64,000 nucleotides of DNA. It comes from an archaeon. Its GTDB lineage: Archaea; Nanobdellota; Nanobdellia; SCGC-AAA011-G17; GW2011-AR17. The notes under the pieces were generated by a model that saw nothing but the letters and a program-made list of their open reading frames with translations, searched no databases and had not been told where the DNA came from. A program made the translations under genes and the position numbers. This document shows positions 3,745 through 30,854 of this stretch, piece after piece. Where the stretch lies: the NCBI GenBank assembly GCA_018656555.1, contig JABHZQ010000012.1:28080-92079 (forward strand), given 5' to 3'. How positions within the stretch are numbered: position 1 is the stretch's first letter; every line of letters starts with the position of its first letter.

Positions 3745-5018
3745 GTAAAAAATGGATTTATGTGTTGATTATCTTTCTAATAGTTGCACTTAGATTTACT
3801 TACATGGATGTTAATCATGAAAATTACTATTGGGATGAAGTTGTTTATTTACATTTGGCAGAGAATATAAACAATGGAGGATATTATTCTCATATTGGTG
3901 AAGAGTTTAGGGCTCCGATGTTTCCTTTTTTATTGTCTTTATTTGGCTATGGACATTTCTTTGTATTTTGTTTAGTGGTTATAGGTATTGTTTTAATGTA
4001 CTTTTTAGGGAAAGAGATATTTAATGAAGAGGTAGGGTTGATCTCTGCTGTTATTTTGGGAAGTATGTCTTTGTATTTTTTCTATAGTTTCAAACTTTTA
4101 ACTGAACCCTTAACACTTATACTTCTTATTGGTGCTATGTTGTTATTGTATAAATATGAGAAGCTGAATAAAAATTATCTTTTATATTTGGGAATGATTT
4201 GTGCTGGCTTGGCTGTTTTGACAAGGTATGTTGCTGGAGCTATGGCTTTAAGCATATTTTTGTATTTGTTGTATAAAAAGAAATGGAAGGAAGTCCTTAT
4301 TTCTGGATTAATCTTCTTGGTTGTATTAAGTCCATTGTTTATTTTAGGAATGTTAAATTATGGTAATCCTTTAGGTATGTTAATTTCAAATTTAGTGGAT
4401 AATACTTCAAAACACGGAGGATTATTTTATTATTTTATACATATCTATCCCATACTGGGTTGGTTTATTCCTGCTGCATTTGTATATGGTTTATTTTCTA
4501 AAGAGAACAAAAAACCAATGTTATTTTTTATTATCACTTATTTTATTGTTTTGGAGATTTTAGCTTTGAAATATGATCGGTTCTTTATTCTTATGTTTCC
4601 TTTTATAGCAGTTATTGCAGCAAAAGGAATCTACAAACTTAACAAGAAATACAAGGTGGGAATGTTATTTTTGGCTATTTGGGTTGTTGTTAATCTTACT
4701 GTGGGTTTAGTCCATATTGATATGGATCGGAGTAATACTGCTCTTTTGGTTAATTCTGCAAGTGATTTTGACTTAGAAGGAAATATGGTTTCTAATTCTC
4801 CAGTTTACTTTAGCTATTTTGGAAATCAAGAAGTGGATTATATCCCCATAGTTGAAACAGATATTAGCCATATTGATTATTTTATAATAGACAATTATCA
4901 TCCAAGAGAAGAAGAGTATTACTTGATTTACACAAATTATATAAAAGAGAATGGAACTTTGGTTTACAACATGACAGAAGGACATAGGGAGGTTTTGGTT
5001 TATGCAACGAAGAGCTAG
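3738..5018 (+). CDS. GT-C fold glycosyltransferase (ArnT/PMT-like, GT39/GT83-type)
   Basis: About 11 predicted TM helices. The first extracytoplasmic loop 'YYWDEVVYLHLAENINNGGYY' resembles the ArnT/PMT N-terminal region. A soluble C-terminal domain follows. Confidence 0.5.
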   Translation: MVGKKWIYVLIIFLIVALRFTYMDVNHENYYWDEVVYLHLAENINNGGYYSHIGEEFRAPMFPFLLSLFGYGHFFVFCLVVIGIVLMYFLGKEIFNEEVGLISAVILGSMSLYFFYSFKLLTEPLTLILLIGAMLLLYKYEKLNKNYLLYLGMICAGLAVLTRYVAGAMALSIFLYLLYKKKWKEVLISGLIFLVVLSPLFILGMLNYGNPLGMLISNLVDNTSKHGGLFYYFIHIYPILGWFIPAAFVYGLFSKENKKPMLFFIITYFIVLEILALKYDRFFILMFPFIAVIAAKGIYKLNKKYKVGMLFLAIWVVVNLTVGLVHIDMDRSNTALLVNSASDFDLEGNMVSNSPVYFSYFGNQEVDYIPIVETDISHIDYFIIDNYHPREEEYYLIYTNYIKENGTLVYNMTEGHREVLVYATKS

Positions 5019-10082: not shown

Positions 10083-10158
10083 TTTTTCTTTTATTTATTT
10101 TATATTAAAGAAATTCTTATAAAGGGTAGCAATATTGGGTTGATTGAGGGAAGATTTT

Positions 10159-11145
10159 ATGAATGGATTAAAATATGAAGATATTCTAGCAAAAATAGAA
10201 AAAGAGAAAGGTTTGTCTAAGACTGAAGTTGAAGATAAGATTAAAGAGAAACTAAAACAGTTATCAGATCTTATTTCTAAAGAGGGTGCAGCCCATATTA
10301 TAGCTAATGAATTAGGTGTTAAGTTATTTGATGTAGGCATTAAGAAAGCTAAAGTTAACCAATTGAATACTATGTTAAAAGGTGTGGAATTGGTGGGGAA
10401 GGTTATTAATATTTATGAGATAAGAGAATTTAAAGTTGCTGCCAGAGAAGGGAGAGTTGTTAATATGTTGGTGGGGGATGAGACGGGTTCTTGTAGATTG
10501 GTTTTATGGGATGAAAAACAGATCAAAGAAGTTGAGGAAGGAAAGCTTAAGGTTGGAGATGTTGTAAGAGTTAGTAATTGTTATGTTAAAGAAAATAATA
10601 GAGGTTATATGGAACTTCATATGGGTAAGAATGGTGAATGGGTGATAAATCCAGAAGGGGAAAGTATTGAAGTAAAAAGTTTTTCTGAGGCTGAAAGGAA
10701 AAATATTAAAGATTTGAAAGAGAATGATAATGCTACACTTGTAGGTACATTAGTTCAAGTTTTTGAACCTAGATTCTATGATTCTTGTCCAGAATGTAGT
10801 AAGAAAGTAGAATACAAGGATGATGGATTTTATTGTGCGGCACATGGCAAGGTGGAGAGTAAACCCCAAGGAGTTTTGAATCTTGTTTTTGATGATGGTA
10901 CAGATAATATTAGAATTGTGTGCTTTAGAGATAATGTTAACAAAGTTCTTGAAGTTGAGGATGTTGTTGATTTGAAAGAAAATCATGAGAAGTTCAATGA
11001 AATCCAAAGAAAAGTAGCAGGTAGACAATTAGAAATTTCTGGAAGAGTTACTAAAAATGATTTCTTTGATAGATTAGAGATGGTTGCAAATTCTGTTAAG
11101 GAAGCAAATCCAAAGGCTTTAGCTATGGAGTTAAAGGAAAATTGA
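10159..11145 (+). CDS. rpa: Replication protein A (archaeal RPA/SSB, OB fold plus C-terminal Zn ribbon)
   Basis: N-terminus '…LSKTEVEDKIKEKLKQLSDLISKEGAAHIIANELGV' is typical of archaeal RPA. An OB fold 'RVVNMLVGDETGSCRLVLWDEK' follows, then a Zn ribbon 'CPECSKK…YCAAHGK'. The ORF track begins at an upstream TTG; the first ATG is at 10159. Confidence 0.65.
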   Translation: MNGLKYEDILAKIEKEKGLSKTEVEDKIKEKLKQLSDLISKEGAAHIIANELGVKLFDVGIKKAKVNQLNTMLKGVELVGKVINIYEIREFKVAAREGRVVNMLVGDETGSCRLVLWDEKQIKEVEEGKLKVGDVVRVSNCYVKENNRGYMELHMGKNGEWVINPEGESIEVKSFSEAERKNIKDLKENDNATLVGTLVQVFEPRFYDSCPECSKKVEYKDDGFYCAAHGKVESKPQGVLNLVFDDGTDNIRIVCFRDNVNKVLEVEDVVDLKENHEKFNEIQRKVAGRQLEISGRVTKNDFFDRLEMVANSVKEANPKALAMELKEN

Positions 11146-14017: not shown

Positions 14018-14476
14018 ATGATGTTTAAGACCCACTTGGTGATTGCACTTTTGGTTGGTATTGTTCTAGTTCAATGGTTAAATCCAATTTATCCTTTAGT
14101 GTTTTTGGCTGTTCTTTGTTTAGCTGCAGCTTTACCGGATATAGATACTCCAAAAAGTAAAGTTGGGAAAAAAGTGGGGTTCCTTTCTAATATTTTGAAC
14201 TACACTCTGGGTCATAGAGGAGTTATGCATAGTCTTTACATACCTGCAGGATTCTTATTATTAAGCATACTCTTGGGTTTTCCATTGATAGGATATGCTT
14301 TTGCTTTTGGGTATGTAATTCATTTACTATCTGATATGCTGACTAAAGATGGTGTTCATTTACTTTACCCTTTTTTTCATGTAAAGGGTTTTATTAGTAC
14401 TGGAGGTATTTGGGAAACTGTGGTTTTCATTTTAGCTTTAGGTTTAATTGTTTTGAAAGTTAGTGCTTTCTTTTAG
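14018..14476 (+). CDS. Membrane-bound metal-dependent hydrolase (DUF457/YdjM-like)
   Basis: Small polytopic protein with conserved 'LPDIDTP' and 'HLLSD' His/Asp motifs. Confidence 0.45.
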   Translation: MMFKTHLVIALLVGIVLVQWLNPIYPLVFLAVLCLAAALPDIDTPKSKVGKKVGFLSNILNYTLGHRGVMHSLYIPAGFLLLSILLGFPLIGYAFAFGYVIHLLSDMLTKDGVHLLYPFFHVKGFISTGGIWETVVFILALGLIVLKVSAFF

Positions 14477-15015
14477 AATATATCTTGAATAAGAGGTAAC
14501 CATTTCTCTTGATGTTCATAAGCAAATACTCCTGCTGCAAATAGTAGTCCATATTTTGAGTAGTTAACAGCTCTTCTTTTTACAGATGGTTTATACTGTT
14601 GTTTTGATCTATCTCTAACTATCTTAGAAAGAGAAGCTTTTTTGTGATTTTTAGGTAAAAGGAATCTTGATTTTCTATATAATTGCTTTAATTTGGGCCC
14701 ATTTATGAGTTTTACACCATATTTATGGGCATCATGGTAGCATCTACCTTCAAAATCAGAGGTTGTCACCATTACCCTTTCTGATGGGTTAAAAGTCTCA
14801 CAAACGCCCACAAACTTCATAAAATCAGCATAGGATACAAGGGAAGAGTAGTTCTTACATTCAACAAAAGAGGGCCTAATAAGCCCATAGACTAGATCTA
14901 TCTGAGCCCTATAGCTCCCTCTCTTGTATGTTTTATTTCTCCTTACTCTTTTTTTCCCTAGATCTTTAAAGAGGTGCTCTGTGAAGATCTCTAGGGAATC
15001 TCCCTTTTTCTTCAT
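14473..15015 (-). CDS. Restriction-endonuclease (Mrr-cat, PD-(D/E)xK) domain protein with a basic C-terminal tail
   Basis: 'GDSLEIFTEHLFKDLG', 'AQIDLVYG', 'VECKNY' and 'VMVTTSDFEGRCYHDAHKYGVKLING' match the Mrr catalytic-domain pattern (D…ExK). Confidence 0.45.
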   Translation of the reverse strand: MKKKGDSLEIFTEHLFKDLGKKRVRRNKTYKRGSYRAQIDLVYGLIRPSFVECKNYSSLVSYADFMKFVGVCETFNPSERVMVTTSDFEGRCYHDAHKYGVKLINGPKLKQLYRKSRFLLPKNHKKASLSKIVRDRSKQQYKPSVKRRAVNYSKYGLLFAAGVFAYEHQEKWLPLIQDIF

Positions 15016-15100: not shown

Positions 15101-16027
15101 TTATCTTCGCACGATTAAGATCAATGCTAGGATAACAATCAATACCGCTAAGATACCGAATCCTAACTTAAGTGCTGTTGAGAAGTCTTTTGTTTCTTCT
15201 TCAGAATCAGCATCTGTTACTGTAACAGTAACTTCGCCTTCATCAGCTTCAGCACCTTCGACGTTCAATGTAATAGAGTCTGAAACAACACTATATCCAT
15301 TGTTATATGTAACAGTTACATCCAGTGTGTATGATGCTGTAGCAGCTTCATCGCCAACTTGGAAATTTAGGGTTACATCGCCTGAGGATTCTTCATCTTC
15401 GTTATCGACTTCAGGTAGGGTGTACAACTCGTCTAAGTAAGTTGCAACATCAACACCAAGCTCTGTGCTTGAAACTTCTACCTTGATATCTTCTTCTTTA
15501 TTGTCACCTTGGTTTTCTAATCTAACTGTAACTGATGCATAATCACCAGCTTCAACTGAATTGTCAACCAAAATGTCTTGAATTCTCACATCATGTCGAG
15601 CATTACTTACTCTCAATGTTGCTTCTTCTCTCACATAGTCTTCATCATCATATGCTTCCACATATAAAGTGTAGTCTTGTTCAGAGTCCATATCATTAGG
15701 TAATTCTAAGTAAAGTGTTTTCTTATAGGAAACACCATCTTCAATATCAAACATACTTGATGTAGCTTGAACAGTTGAATATTCATATCCACCTAGCCAT
15801 GTCTTAACGTTAACATCGGTTGTTTCGCCAAGACCTTCAAGGTAAACTTCAACTGCAATAGTTGCGCCTTCTTCTACGTAGACTGTGTTTGCGTATGATA
15901 AATCATCAACTTTGATATCAGTGATTTCATAGTTGGTTGATTCAGCAGCTAGTGCTGGAACGCATAACAGGCATAGTACAAACATTATTGCAAGTACAAT
16001 TTTTTTCATTTTATATTTGACCTCCAA
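15101..16027 (-). CDS. Acidic cell-surface (S-layer-like) protein with a signal peptide and a PGF-CTERM-like C-terminal anchor
   Basis: Signal peptide 'MKKIVLAIMFVLCLLCVPALA', a highly acidic Thr-rich body, and C-terminus '…TVTVTDADSEEETKDFSTALKLGFGILAVLIVILALILIVRR' (Gly-Phe, TM, then RR). Confidence 0.5.
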   Translation of the reverse strand: MEVKYKMKKIVLAIMFVLCLLCVPALAAESTNYEITDIKVDDLSYANTVYVEEGATIAVEVYLEGLGETTDVNVKTWLGGYEYSTVQATSSMFDIEDGVSYKKTLYLELPNDMDSEQDYTLYVEAYDDEDYVREEATLRVSNARHDVRIQDILVDNSVEAGDYASVTVRLENQGDNKEEDIKVEVSSTELGVDVATYLDELYTLPEVDNEDEESSGDVTLNFQVGDEAATASYTLDVTVTYNNGYSVVSDSITLNVEGAEADEGEVTVTVTDADSEEETKDFSTALKLGFGILAVLIVILALILIVRR

Positions 16028-16218
16028 ATGATCACATTTGTTACCATTTGAAAATAATAAAACCTTTATAAACCTTTCGGTGTGTTATAACTCCCGAGTG
16101 GTATTTTGTCTAAAAATGACTGTTTTTGGTCATTTTGAAGGTTTTTTAAGAAAAGTGCAATAATCTTTATAAAAAATCAAGGAATAATTAGGTTGTGACA
16201 AGGCATCTGCGCGCAGGG

Positions 16219-16226
16219 TTTATATA
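16219..16226 (+). promoter_or_regulatory. TATA-box-like element (tttatata) embedded in nested palindromes upstream of the small ORF/radA operon
   Basis: TATA-like octamer ~36 nt upstream of ATG 16262. Flanked by the perfect palindrome CTGCGCGCAG (16207-16216) and the inverted repeat AGGCAT/ATGCCT (16201-06 / 16229-34). Confidence 0.3.
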
Positions 16227-16261
16227 GCATGCCTAAGTATATAGCACAAGGAGGGATCAAA

Positions 16262-16513
16262 ATGCCAGCACCTATGAAAAGCTTTAAATCTGGAAATTTC
16301 GAAGGAAGTATCTGGAAGAATGAAAAAGACTTTGGTGAGGGAGGAGGAGTTGTAACTTTTAAGTCTGTAACAATAAGGAAGACTTGGAGAGATAATTCTA
16401 ATGTTCTTAGGGAACAAAGACTAAATCTAAGAAAGAATGATGTTGAAAAGATGATTGTTATATTAAGAAAGATCCAAGAACATTTACATCTAGAAGATAT
16501 AAAGGAGGAATAA
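16262..16513 (+). CDS. Small conserved protein translationally coupled to radA; possible PC4/YdbC-like ssDNA-binding fold
   Basis: Strong RBS 'aaggaggg' 7 nt upstream of ATG 16262; its stop lies 1 nt before the radA ATG. 'VVTFKSVTIRKTWRD…QRLNLRKNDVEKMIVILRKI' is reminiscent of PC4/YdbC. The ORF track's upstream extension is probably not translated. Confidence 0.35.
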   Translation: MPAPMKSFKSGNFEGSIWKNEKDFGEGGGVVTFKSVTIRKTWRDNSNVLREQRLNLRKNDVEKMIVILRKIQEHLHLEDIKEE

Positions 16514-16514
16514 A

Positions 16515-17468
16515 ATGACAAAAGAACTGCAAATTGAAGACCTACCAGGAGTAGGGGCTGCTACTGCTGAAAAATTGAAGGATGGTGGTTTTGATAGTTT
16601 AATGGCTATTGCTGTTGCAACACCTGGAGAGCTAATTGAAACTACTGGAATGGGTGATTCTGTTGCAAGAAAGGTGATTAATGCTGCTAGAAATAATTTA
16701 GATATGGGTTTTGCCTCAGGCGATGAACTTTTAGCTAAAAGAGCCCTAATTAAAAAAATCAGTACTGGTTGTAAGGCTTTTGATGAACTGGTCGGTGGAG
16801 GATTTGAATCTGGAGGGATTGCAGAGTGTTATGGAGCCTTTGGTTCTGGTAAGACCGCTTTAGCCCACCAATTGGCTGTAAATGCCCTGGATATTGATGA
16901 GGAAGGAGAACCCCATGCACATTCAGTCTGGATTGATTCTGAGAATACATTTAGACCTGAAAGGATTAAACAGATTGCTGAAGCTGCAGGTTATGATCCA
17001 ATTAAAATACTAAAAAATATTAAAGTGGTTAGAGCCTATAATTCTGATCACCAGATGATGTGTGCTGAAAAAGTAGAGGATTTGATTACTAAAGATGGTT
17101 TGGCTATTAACCTAATTATTGTTGATTCTTTAATGGCCCATTTTAGAGCTGAGTTTATAGGGAGAGGAACTTTAGCAGATCGGCAACAGAAATTGAACAA
17201 ACATATGCATATATTAATGAAAGTTGCTGATGTACAGAACCTATGTGTTTATGTCACTAACCAAGTTATGGCTAAACCAGATATGTTCTTTGGTGATCCT
17301 ACAGCTGCTATTGGAGGTAATATTGTAGGTCATAATTCCCAAACAAGAGTTTACTTGAGAAGAGGGAAGAAGAGCACAAGAGTGGCAAAGTTGGTAGATA
17401 GTCCCCATTTGCCAGATGGTGAGTGTTGCTTTATGATTTCTAATGAAGGAATCATAGATGTCAAATAG
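16515..17468 (+). CDS. radA: DNA repair and recombination protein RadA
   Basis: N-terminal HhH 'LEDLPGVGAATAEKLKDGGF', Walker A 'GAFGSGKT', and Walker B 'LIIVDSLMAHFRAEF'. Confidence 0.9.
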   Translation: MTKELQIEDLPGVGAATAEKLKDGGFDSLMAIAVATPGELIETTGMGDSVARKVINAARNNLDMGFASGDELLAKRALIKKISTGCKAFDELVGGGFESGGIAECYGAFGSGKTALAHQLAVNALDIDEEGEPHAHSVWIDSENTFRPERIKQIAEAAGYDPIKILKNIKVVRAYNSDHQMMCAEKVEDLITKDGLAINLIIVDSLMAHFRAEFIGRGTLADRQQKLNKHMHILMKVADVQNLCVYVTNQVMAKPDMFFGDPTAAIGGNIVGHNSQTRVYLRRGKKSTRVAKLVDSPHLPDGECCFMISNEGIIDVK

Positions 17469-17507: not shown

Positions 17508-17681
17508 ATGGAAAAGAAACTTAAATGTACATCTTGTAAAAAAGAATTAATCAATGATCGAGGATCTACTGTTTTTACCTGTCCTACATGTAATAAGACC
17601 CAAATTGTTAGGTGTTCACAATGTAGAAAATTAGGTACAAAATATCAATGTCCAACTTGTGAAACTGAGGGTCCTAATTAA
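17508..17681 (+). CDS. Zn-ribbon protein (COG2888-type, usually found upstream of aEF-1beta)
   Basis: 57 aa 'MEKKLKCTSCKK…FTCPTCNKT…CSQCRK…YQCPTCETEGPN' with four CxxC pairs. Not in the ORF track (<60 aa). Confidence 0.55.
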   Translation: MEKKLKCTSCKKELINDRGSTVFTCPTCNKTQIVRCSQCRKLGTKYQCPTCETEGPN

Positions 17682-17682
17682 A

Positions 17683-17955
17683 ATGGTACAAGCGGGAGTA
17701 ACAATAAAGGTAATGCCTAAAGGTGTTGAAGTTGATAGAGTAGCACTTAAAGGTAAAATGGAAGAGAAAATAAACTCAGCTTATGGCGATGTTGGTGAAA
17801 TCAGATTTGAGGAAGAACCTGTTGCTTTTGGTTTAGTTGCTTTAAAATTTACTTTTATAATTGATGAAGCAAAAGGAACTGATATGGTTGAGGATTGGGA
17901 AGTTGAAGATGCTTCAGATATCTCAGTTATTGACTTTAGAAGAGCATTAGGTTAA
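17683..17955 (+). CDS. Translation elongation factor aEF-1 beta
   Basis: 'MVQAGVTIKVMPKGVEVD…EEEPVAFGLVALKFTFIIDEAKG…' matches aEF-1beta over its full length. The first ATG is at 17683. Confidence 0.8.
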   Translation: MVQAGVTIKVMPKGVEVDRVALKGKMEEKINSAYGDVGEIRFEEEPVAFGLVALKFTFIIDEAKGTDMVEDWEVEDASDISVIDFRRALG

Positions 17956-29999: not shown

Positions 30000-30854
30000 A
30001 TGAATATTAAAAAAACCCCAGAAGAGTTTATTGTTAAGGAAGAAGCACAATTAGAACTTGGTAGTGGAAAGTATGCTTACTTTCTTTTGGAGAAAAAAAA
30101 TTGGAATACTCTGGATATAATTAGAGATATTGCAAGAAGATTAAATATTAAAGAAAAAGATATTGGTTTTTCAGGTAATAAAGATAAAAGGGCTTGGACT
30201 TTTCAACATATTTCTATTCCAGTTTCTAAAGAAAGAGTTCTTGGTTTAAGGATTAGAGATGTTAGATTAGAATATTTGGGGAATGGAAGTAAAAGAATTA
30301 ATTTGGGAATGTTAAAGGGCAATCATTTTGAGATTGTTGTTAGAGATTGTAAGGGGATTGAAGAAAAAGAGTTTATTATCAATTACTTTGGTGAACAAAG
30401 GTTTGGGGTTGAGAAAAAAAATTGGAAAGTTGGAAAGTATTTGATATTGGGTAAATTTAAGGATGCTTGTGAACTTTTGAATTTAGAAGTTGAAAGGAAT
30501 GACTACCTCGGTGCTTTGAAAAGAGAGGGATTTAGGACTTTAAAATTTTATATTGCATCTTATCAAAGTTATTTATGGAATAAAGTGGTTGATGGAAAGG
30601 GTAAGGTTCCTATCTTGGGCTATTTAACAGAAGGAAAAGTTTATGATAAACTTATGAAAGAAGAGGGGATTAAAAAAACAGATTTTATGATTATGTCTTT
30701 TAGGGAATTAAGTGCTGAAGGGGGAGAAAGAGAGGGAGTTGTAGAGATTCAAGACTTTAAATCTGAGAAGATTGAAGATGGAGTGTATAGAGTTAGTTTT
30801 TTCTTGTCAAAGGGGGCTTATGCCACTGAAGTTTTAAGGCAGATAGTTTTATAA
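30000..30854 (+). CDS. truD: tRNA pseudouridine synthase TruD/Pus7 family (compact form)
   Basis: 'GFSGNKDKRAWTFQHIS' (catalytic Asp motif), 'INYFGEQRFG', and C-terminal 'GAYATEVLRQI'. Confidence 0.65.
   Translation: MNIKKTPEEFIVKEEAQLELGSGKYAYFLLEKKNWNTLDIIRDIARRLNIKEKDIGFSGNKDKRAWTFQHISIPVSKERVLGLRIRDVRLEYLGNGSKRINLGMLKGNHFEIVVRDCKGIEEKEFIINYFGEQRFGVEKKNWKVGKYLILGKFKDACELLNLEVERNDYLGALKREGFRTLKFYIASYQSYLWNKVVDGKGKVPILGYLTEGKVYDKLMKEEGIKKTDFMIMSFRELSAEGGEREGVVEIQDFKSEKIEDGVYRVSFFLSKGAYATEVLRQIVL

Follow-up and report, generated by a model that had tools for sequence, protein, structure and literature searches.

A small protein with a predicted PC4-like fold is encoded with RadA in Woesearchaeota-type archaea, under a promoter module found at other repair genes

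PC4-like proteins of the Type II class are single β-β-β-β-α chains that homodimerise and bind single-stranded DNA (ssDNA) or RNA (Janowski & Niessing 2020, PMC7549692). A PC4-like protein of phage T5 acts in recombination-dependent replication, Whirly proteins perform recombination surveillance on ssDNA, and the known Pur-α proteins dimerise into one PC4-like domain that binds ssDNA or RNA (PMC7549692). The 2013 study of YdbC stated that PC4 and Pur-α were absent from archaea and described the YdbC, PC4 and Pur-α genes as monocistronic (PMC3575825), and a review of PC4-like domains from 2020 leaves archaea unmentioned (PMC7549692). For gene regulation, the only characterised archaeal damage-response element is the ANTTTC motif bound by Orc1-2 (PMC6061795). 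Here, we analysed a stretch of 64,000 nucleotides from a Woesearchaeota-type DPANN archaeon (contig JABHZQ010000012.1, positions 28,080 to 92,079; hereafter the window), in which an open reading frame (ORF) of 83 codons, below called the small ORF, forms a two-gene operon with the recombinase gene radA. We know of no archaeal RadA partner with a PC4-like fold, and, to our knowledge, archaeal damage-response regulation is essentially unknown outside Sulfolobales. We slightly favour a reading in which the small protein is a dimeric single-stranded nucleic-acid binder that is made together with RadA and aids recombinational repair.

The small ORF is almost certainly a genuine gene that is co-expressed with radA. 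A first-pass annotation of the window had reported an 83-amino-acid (aa) ORF with a strong ribosome-binding site and a stop codon 1 nt before the radA ATG, and each of these features could be read directly from the DNA (Table 1); the start coordinate given there, 16201, is that of the promoter region and not of the ORF. A 94-aa frame starting from an ATG at 16229 was rejected as the true ORF, since the MPAP/MPSP methionine was the start in all 10 close homologues. In a search of 5.8 billion proteins, 10 homologues with 72-99% identity had the same start, and when 1.84 billion cluster representatives were searched exhaustively, 55 homologue clusters (defined at 50% identity) were returned at E<1e-3, nearly all of them 75-110 aa long. 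The family profile retrieved at least 184 homologous proteins, all of them annotated as hypothetical and none with a Pfam domain. Some longer database members were considered as Rosetta-stone fusions and discarded as mis-called starts or a spurious repeat protein.

Compared with the near-identical strain L007, the small ORF carried 8 synonymous codon changes and 1 non-synonymous change, with a ratio of non-synonymous to synonymous substitution rates (dN/dS) of 0.027 (0.063 for radA); purifying selection on the small protein is strong. In addition, the initiation region (16249-16300) was less stably folded than 200 of 200 shuffled sequences (z +2.35). A short frame that databases annotate with nothing beyond "hypothetical protein" might also be a chance open frame in an untranslated radA leader. 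However, its start, length and residues are kept down to 27-33% identity, and the dN/dS value, the strong Shine-Dalgarno sequence and the confident, concordant structure predictions leave this explanation with virtually no probability; we consider it effectively refuted already. The DNA of the window and L007 differed unevenly along the locus, with a synonymous divergence (dS) of 0.19 in the small ORF and 92% identity in the intergenic region, versus a dS of 0.67 in radA (16028-16513 versus 16515-17264). The low divergence could mean that the small ORF is under extra constraint as DNA or RNA, or that a recombination event had its breakpoint between the two genes.

The downstream gene product matched Pfam Rad51 (E 2e-77, residues 76-315) and HHH_5 (E 1e-10, residues 8-59), the domain composition and approximate length (about 320 aa) of an archaeal RadA. 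To follow the pair in relatives, one genome per prokaryotic species was scanned with an 11-sequence alignment as the query. This gave 21 loci, all in metagenome-assembled genomes of Woesearchaeota/Nanoarchaeota (DPANN), whose small proteins were 33-99% identical. By tblastn, radA was found directly downstream and on the same strand in 21 of the 21 species genomes, as well as in 8 further metagenome contigs. The linked loci include a JGI contig, a 29%-identical member (L029), the most divergent subgroup (L031) and four contigs retrieved through the promoter pattern described below. The linked RadA orthologues were 56-92% identical. The upstream neighbours, on the other hand, varied by locus (genes for S-layer-like, glycosyltransferase, nucleotidyltransferase and NUDIX proteins), and the conserved unit is, therefore, the small ORF plus radA. 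The gene order, whose loss in relatives would have spoken against the first-pass annotation, was thus clearly retained.

In about 20 of 24 loci, the two genes met at -8 (ATGAGTAA), -4 (ATGA) or +1 to +3 nt, a count that includes N-terminally extended RadA starts judged by eye from the printed junctions; several apparent gaps were N-terminally extended RadAs whose ATG again overlapped the stop. Exceptions were L019 (168 nt), L029 (33 nt) and L023 (16 nt). Overlapping or nearly abutting stop and start codons that are conserved in relatives are what is expected of a two-gene operon, and the earlier proposal that the small ORF is almost certainly co-expressed with radA was upheld by the recurrence of both the linkage and the tight junction far beyond this genome. 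The stop/start pattern is also what translational coupling predicts, making the junction a plausible candidate for coupling. In some relatives, RadA inteins appear to be inserted at three different sites, with breaks near residue 215 (L001/L002/L008), 270 (L022) and 145 (L026); the L002 RadA is 768 aa long and contains Intein_splicing and LAGLIDADG_3 domains, while the RadA of the window is intein-free.

AlphaFold2, run with the family alignment, predicted four strands (residues 6-10, 13-23, 30-43 and 49-57) followed by a helix (58-82; assigned by DSSP) for the small protein, with a predicted local distance difference test (pLDDT) score of 86.1. The same β-β-β-β-α topology was predicted for P0073, a 39%-identical member encoded in the complete GW2011_AR20 genome (pLDDT 88.7), with equivalent strand and helix elements by DSSP. 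The small protein is, in these models, a single β-β-β-β-α chain of about 70-90 residues, as in the type II PC4-like class, and it matched a PUR repeat structurally: the closest solved structure was bacterial Pur-α, followed by COMM domains and PC4-family proteins, and the top Foldseek match in the PDB was 3n8b. A search of a viral fold library with the model gave nothing significant. Taken from these models, a PC4-like fold is highly probable.

Sequence searches placed the protein in no family. Pfam, NCBIfam and PHROGs gave no family match for 59 members, and phmmer and profile searches against PDB sequences were negative as well, the profile search finding nothing at E<=10. The window protein itself had no Pfam match at E<=1, and none of the 59 members matched PC4, PurA/DUF3276 or COMM. 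An hhalign comparison of the 59-sequence family alignment with the C-terminal domain of human PC4 plus MoSub1 gave a probability of 0.15% and an E value of 0.39, the PC4 side being a thin two-sequence profile (its PC4 sequence was verified against PDB 1pcf/6ycs). The first-pass annotation had suggested a PC4/YdbC-type fold, to be checked by Foldseek and profile methods. The four-strand sheet plus helix that it had claimed was predicted, with Pur-α 3n8b ranking first, but hhalign against PC4 was negative and no sequence or profile method linked the protein to PC4/YdbC. The "TIRKTW" pattern on which the suggestion was based resembles the "DIREYW" of PC4 in the window's clade only; across the wider family, it is position 40 that holds the conserved basic residue, while position 39 varies. 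Our verdict from the models is that the small protein represents a new sequence family with a predicted PC4-like fold and has its closest structural counterpart in the PUR repeat, rather than being a member of PC4/YdbC.

The comparison with Pur-α (Borrelia burgdorferi BB0047-type single PUR repeat, 3n8b/3nm7; DUF3276, PF11680; PurA, PF04845) extends to the small protein also being basic. However, the two were only 11-13% identical in structural alignments, without any match between hidden Markov models, and the small protein is found in DPANN archaea, whereas Pur-α is found in spirochaetes and Bacteroidetes. Pur-α genes are, moreover, described as monocistronic (PMC3575825), while the small ORF is in an operon with radA. 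With PC4/Sub1 (PF02229, including YdbC/DUF2128 and the phage T5 protein), it has in common a small size, a basic sheet and the combination of sheet and helix, but the PC4/YdbC signature residues (D-I-R, K-G-I-[ST]) are not conserved in the small-protein family and the structural match was weaker than that to Pur-α. Whirly proteins, which bind ssDNA in plant organelles and limit illegitimate recombination, belong to the same fold class (PMC7549692), but have two repeats per chain and form tetramers; the Foldseek match to 1l3a was weak (E 0.58, TM 0.40), and there was no sequence relation.

Residues P4, W18, N20, F33, K/R40, W42, R50 and R57 were conserved on the predicted sheet. Proteins of the window's clade had an isoelectric point (pI) of 9.4, with 11 K/R versus 6 D/E in the sheet region, and the C-terminus of most orthologues was an acidic tail (such as EEEEEDE or EDDEAEAD), which may be reminiscent of the tails of bacterial single-stranded DNA-binding protein (SSB). 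A conserved [FWY]-[KR]-[SA]-G sequence near the N-terminus was considered as a mimic of the FxxA motif of RadA polymerisation and rejected, as it is poor in information, falls within a predicted strand and has Ile in some close homologues.

Upstream of the small ORF, the first-pass annotation had described a GC-rich palindrome, flanking inverted-repeat arms around a TATA-like box, and a further inverted repeat, all of which were found at the coordinates claimed (Table 1). What is conserved out to the most distant loci is, however, an asymmetric, ordered module: 1-4 direct copies of TTG[ACT]CA(A)/GACAA, 3-8 nt, C[GC]CG[CT]AGG, 1 nt, and TTTATA[AT]A. Of 24 radA-operon loci, 22 had the box, 12-17 nt upstream of TATA, compared with 0.11 boxes per 45 nt in the background. 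The window has 32% G+C, and CGCGC occurs once in the 64 kb versus 0.34 times expected from dinucleotide-preserving shuffles. The palindrome CTGCGCGCAG decays to ATGCGCGCAG in L007, ATACGCGCAG in L003 and ATGCGCGTAG in L001, and the AGGCAT/ATGCCT arms are gone in L003 and L001. The repeat at 16113-16136 was found only in the window and L007, where both arms had changed together (AAAATGGC/GCCATTTT), while L003 and L001 lack it. The inverted repeats showed nothing remarkable when folded as RNA or DNA (fold z-scores of -0.21 and +1.53 versus shuffles), and inverted repeats of 6-8 nt are abundant in this AT-rich spacer, with 15 pairs in 234 nt. The palindromes were, therefore, rejected both as an operator and as an RNA structure, being unconserved and folding no better than shuffles. 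The idea of an operator for a damage-responsive regulator survives in part: its palindromic basis was wrong, but the GC-rich core lies in a promoter module that is shared with repair genes.

To see where else this module occurs, metagenomes were scanned with the pattern GACAA-N3-8-CGCGCAGG-N-TTTATA, giving 30 matches. Thirteen of these were in low-GC contigs (0.30-0.38), and all 13 were intergenic. Four were radA-operon copies, L039, L047 and L051 with radA in view and L052 ending at the contig edge after the leader motif described below; a fifth radA-operon copy, L053, had the module with the small ORF and radA in a contig with a GC content of 0.50. The other 16 of the 17 matches at GC>=0.43 were chance matches, mostly inside long ORFs and none with a gene at promoter distance, and served as negative controls. 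This left 9 copies away from radA in low-GC archaeal contigs (L038, L050, L049, L055, L054, L059, L045, L061 and L042; Table 1), with the recurring form (cac)TGGACA-GACAA-N3-5-CGCGCAGG-N-TTTATAAA. The matches are in metagenome contigs, four of which came from one sample (Ga0180007). In 7 of the 9 copies, the ATG was 24-27 nt after TTTATA, the geometry of leaderless archaeal mRNAs, which argues independently that the TATA box is functional. Because of this spacing, we also infer that transcription of the small ORF starts near 16249-16251, at the Shine-Dalgarno sequence, with a leader of about 12 nt.

Several functionally related genes were thus preceded by the same cis-module at a constant distance from the basal promoter. 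Since these include uvrB, hef and a primase-like gene, the sequence matches suggest a promoter class common to nucleotide-excision and fork-repair genes, the set being a candidate regulon for DNA repair in Woesearchaeota-like archaea. That repair genes have a regulator of their own is plausible; CGCGCAGG could be a regulator's site or an unusual transcription factor B (TFB) recognition element (BRE), and the module could be read by a transcription factor on the boxes or by a TFB paralogue that takes CGCGCAGG for a BRE. The promoters of the Sulfolobales damage response (Orc1-2 on ANTTTC, PMC6061795) similarly have a short element near the basal promoter of repair-related genes. However, the sequence differs, with GACAA/TTGNCA plus CGCGCAGG abutting the TATA box here, the phylum is different, and the gene set comprises radA, uvrB and hef here versus ups, ced and tfb3 there. 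No second copy of the module was found within the 64-kb window: other TTGACAA words were rejected as regulon promoters because they lie inside genes, and a TTGTCAA near the FtsY promoter at 30804 was rejected as it lacks the GC element.

Immediately 5' of the Shine-Dalgarno sequence of the small ORF, most radA-linked relatives had a purine-rich leader RNA, UGAAAUAAAAUGCGAAAGCAAGGAGG, with the pattern UGAAA(U/A)AAA(A/U)-NNN-GA(A/U)(A)A-N'N'N'-A(A)GGAGG, which would form a 3-bp GNRA-type hairpin. The two inner pairs co-vary perfectly (GC/GC in 11, CC/GG in 4 and GG/CC in 3 of 18 copies). The motif was sometimes present as two tandem copies and, in about 250 kb of locus sequence, occurred almost only at the small-ORF position. 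It had no Rfam match and was absent from the window (16227-16261), whose clade has lost it together with the greater part of the leader. The motif may be an autoregulatory RNA site.

In the reading that we slightly favour, the small protein would homodimerise, as do other single-repeat ("type II") PC4-like proteins, and its basic, aromatic-rich sheet (the conserved residues from W18 to R57 above) would bind ssDNA or RNA. Nucleic-acid binding as such seems rather likely, whereas we hold a direct functional partnership with RadA to be evenly balanced. Because it would be made in a fixed ratio with RadA, the small protein would act at the presynaptic step of homologous recombination, where it might hold or open ssDNA and aid RadA loading in competition with RPA. 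Alternatively, it might restrain inappropriate strand exchange in a Whirly-like manner. The acidic C-terminal tail of most orthologues would contact partners or regulate the protein itself, much like the tails of bacterial SSB and of ssDNA-binding proteins from phages. Such a role would resemble that of the recombination mediators (RecO/RecR, Rad52, BRCA2, archaeal RadA paralogues and phage UvsY/gp32) in the proposed handover from RPA/SSB to the recombinase and in being encoded with the recombinase; their folds and sequences are, however, unrelated to the small protein, whose role is deduced from context.

Several observations weigh against this reading. Profile and profile-profile searches found no sequence-level homology to any nucleic-acid-binding family, and the function is read only from the predicted fold and the gene context. 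The AlphaFold2 models are single chains (predicted template modelling scores of 0.63-0.67), compatible with a dimer but uninformative about it. Owing to their tails, many orthologues are acidic overall (pI 5.3-6.6). Furthermore, the genome already encodes a canonical RPA, leaving no gap in ssDNA binding to fill. With a strong Shine-Dalgarno sequence in front of radA itself, coupling is no more than plausible, and in L019 the small ORF and radA are separated by a T-rich spacer of 168 nt. Finally, a distant paralogue, P0151 (L028:789-1058, 27% identical), adjoins a tyrosine integrase and not radA, and the small-protein family may, therefore, also travel on mobile elements. P0151 also lies near a large PAS/GAF response-regulator gene, and it has neither the leader motif nor the promoter module.

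The small protein could instead be a regulator, binding the promoter of its operon and regulon or its own mRNA leader and setting the expression of radA and repair genes, possibly with ssDNA as the inducing signal. PC4, Whirly and Pur-α all act in transcription, and the gene of the small protein lies within the putative regulon itself, under the GACAA-box/CGCGCAGG/TATA promoter common to uvrB, hef and others. The co-varying hairpin leader of most relatives would fit the same idea, as some ssDNA-binding proteins autoregulate on their own leaders; T4 gp32 is an example. However, the window's clade keeps the gene without the leader motif, and the GACAA boxes, being direct repeats, are double-stranded sites of the sort that winged-helix or helix-turn-helix proteins, rather than PC4-like sheets, usually recognise. 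Stoichiometric coupling to RadA would also be unusual for a regulator. On this evidence, a regulatory role is unlikely.

We think it quite unlikely that the small protein is a general ssDNA or RNA binder for genome maintenance, i.e., a second, non-OB "SSB" or a Whirly-like guard against illegitimate recombination, whose adjacency to radA reflects shared regulation only. YdbC and similar PC4-like proteins are considered to complement SSB (PMC3575825), the promoter is common to several unrelated DNA-metabolism genes, and a paralogue exists away from radA. Yet radA is adjacent in every radA-linked locus over a deep divergence, and the stop/start overlap has been kept, which is tighter than co-regulation needs, given that the other regulon members are scattered. 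COMM domains were second among the structural matches, and a COMM-like dimerisation or adaptor protein would bind RadA or other proteins, not nucleic acids. COMM proteins combine an N-terminal domain made of helices (HN) and a COMM domain matched by Pfam COMM_domain; the small protein has no HN domain, its four strands are not in the COMM arrangement, and a Pfam COMM match was found in 0 of 59 members. Its sheet is basic and rich in aromatic residues, while COMMD-like proteins are described as lacking the charged nucleic-acid surface of Pur-α (PMC13392464), and we regard this alternative as very improbable.

The features of the locus and the copies of the motifs elsewhere are collected in Table 1. 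In two relatives, too, an RPA gene is found no more than a few kb from the operon. For the divergent CARDB/Ig-like gene, the listed TTG at 16027 is probably wrong and the true start is likely the ATG at 16009 (MKKIVLAIM...), behind GGAGGT; its TATA box, with a cgAAAgg BRE, is at 16065-16072 on the minus strand. Between the two divergent promoters, about 120 nt (16073-16195) are kept in L003 despite a different upstream gene there, for example GTTATAACTCNNGAGTRGT at 16084-16102 and AATAATCTTTATAAAAAAT at 16160-16178, and this spacer possibly holds a small untranslated transcript or a second promoter. An Rfam search of the intergenic region and the loci of seven relatives found only tRNAs, plus an insignificant DUF3800-V match (E 1.4).

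Table 1. Coordinates of features in the window and of motif or module copies at other loci
Feature	Position	Strand	Remarks
Small ORF	16262-16513	+	ATG 16262, stop TAA 16511-16513, 83 aa
radA	16515-17468	+	317 aa; N-terminal helix-hairpin-helix domain and Rad51/RecA ATPase core
Shine-Dalgarno GGAGGG of small ORF	16250-16255	+	6 nt 5' of ATG; kept in relatives
Shine-Dalgarno GGAGG of radA	16504-16508	+	within final K-E-E codons of small ORF; 6 nt 5' of radA ATG
Stop/start junction TAA-A-ATG	16511-16517	+	1-nt spacer (A 16514); candidate translational-coupling site
Upstream box GACAA (as GTGACAA, 16195-16201)	16197-16201	+	proximal copy of TTG[ACT]CA(A)/GACAA box
GC-rich element CGCGCAGG	16210-16217	+	directly 5' of TATA, BRE position; overlaps palindrome 16207-16216
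TATA box TTTATATA	16219-16226	+	aligns with TTTATA[AT]A of all relatives
Palindrome CTGCGCGCAG	16207-16216		
Inverted repeat AGGCAT/ATGCCT	16201-16206 and 16229-16234		
Inverted repeat AAAATGAC-n8-GTCATTTT, then T-run	16113-16136	+	probably outside the operon's control region
RPA-like ssDNA-binding protein	10144-11145	+	OB fold and Rep_fac-A_C; 5 kb from operon
Mrr-type restriction endonuclease domain protein	14473-15015	-	
Divergent neighbour, secreted CARDB/Ig-like repeat protein	15101-16027	-	C-terminal membrane anchor
Small four-cysteine zinc-ribbon protein	17508-17681	+	HVO_2753-like
EF-1beta	17659-17955	+	listed GTG start overlapped 23 nt by end of zinc-ribbon gene (ORF table)
Leader motif, examples	L017:3957-3988; L020:3923-3960, 3965-4000; L016:3925-3999; L029:2966-3000; L031:179-212		
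Module upstream of UvrB	L038		Pfam UvrB_inter, UvrB, UVR
Module upstream of Hef nuclease/helicase	L050		NCBIfam PRK13766, E 2e-56 on 160-aa fragment
Module upstream of DNA-primase-S/LigD-Prim-Pol-like protein	L049		
Module upstream of NERD/Hjc-like protein			587 aa
Module upstream of KilA-N protein and Bro-N protein			
Module upstream of two DUF6036 nucleotidyltransferase-like proteins			
Module upstream of TcmP protein			

In the literature searched, we found no description of a small RadA-linked protein, a PC4-like RadA partner or a DPANN repair regulon. New here are the sequence family, its conserved operon partnership with a recombinase and an undescribed promoter class, while the fold and the likely biochemistry are known. 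A family of at least 184 sequences that is firmly tied to radA throughout an order of uncultured archaea with reduced genomes is a concrete candidate for a missing recombination accessory factor, and the small protein looks soluble and easy to express. The module common to uvrB and hef also offers a testable handle on the regulation of repair genes in DPANN archaea. It is conceivable, although improbable, that the repair genes (the radA operon, uvrB, hef, the primase-polymerase gene and others) form an SOS-like circuit under a shared type of promoter, with the PC4-like protein as ssDNA sensor; it would act on the promoters or its own leader and be titrated by damage-made ssDNA or RadA filaments. 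If true, a damage-response logic would be described for DPANN archaea for the first time, and the PC4-like fold would gain a new use in regulation.

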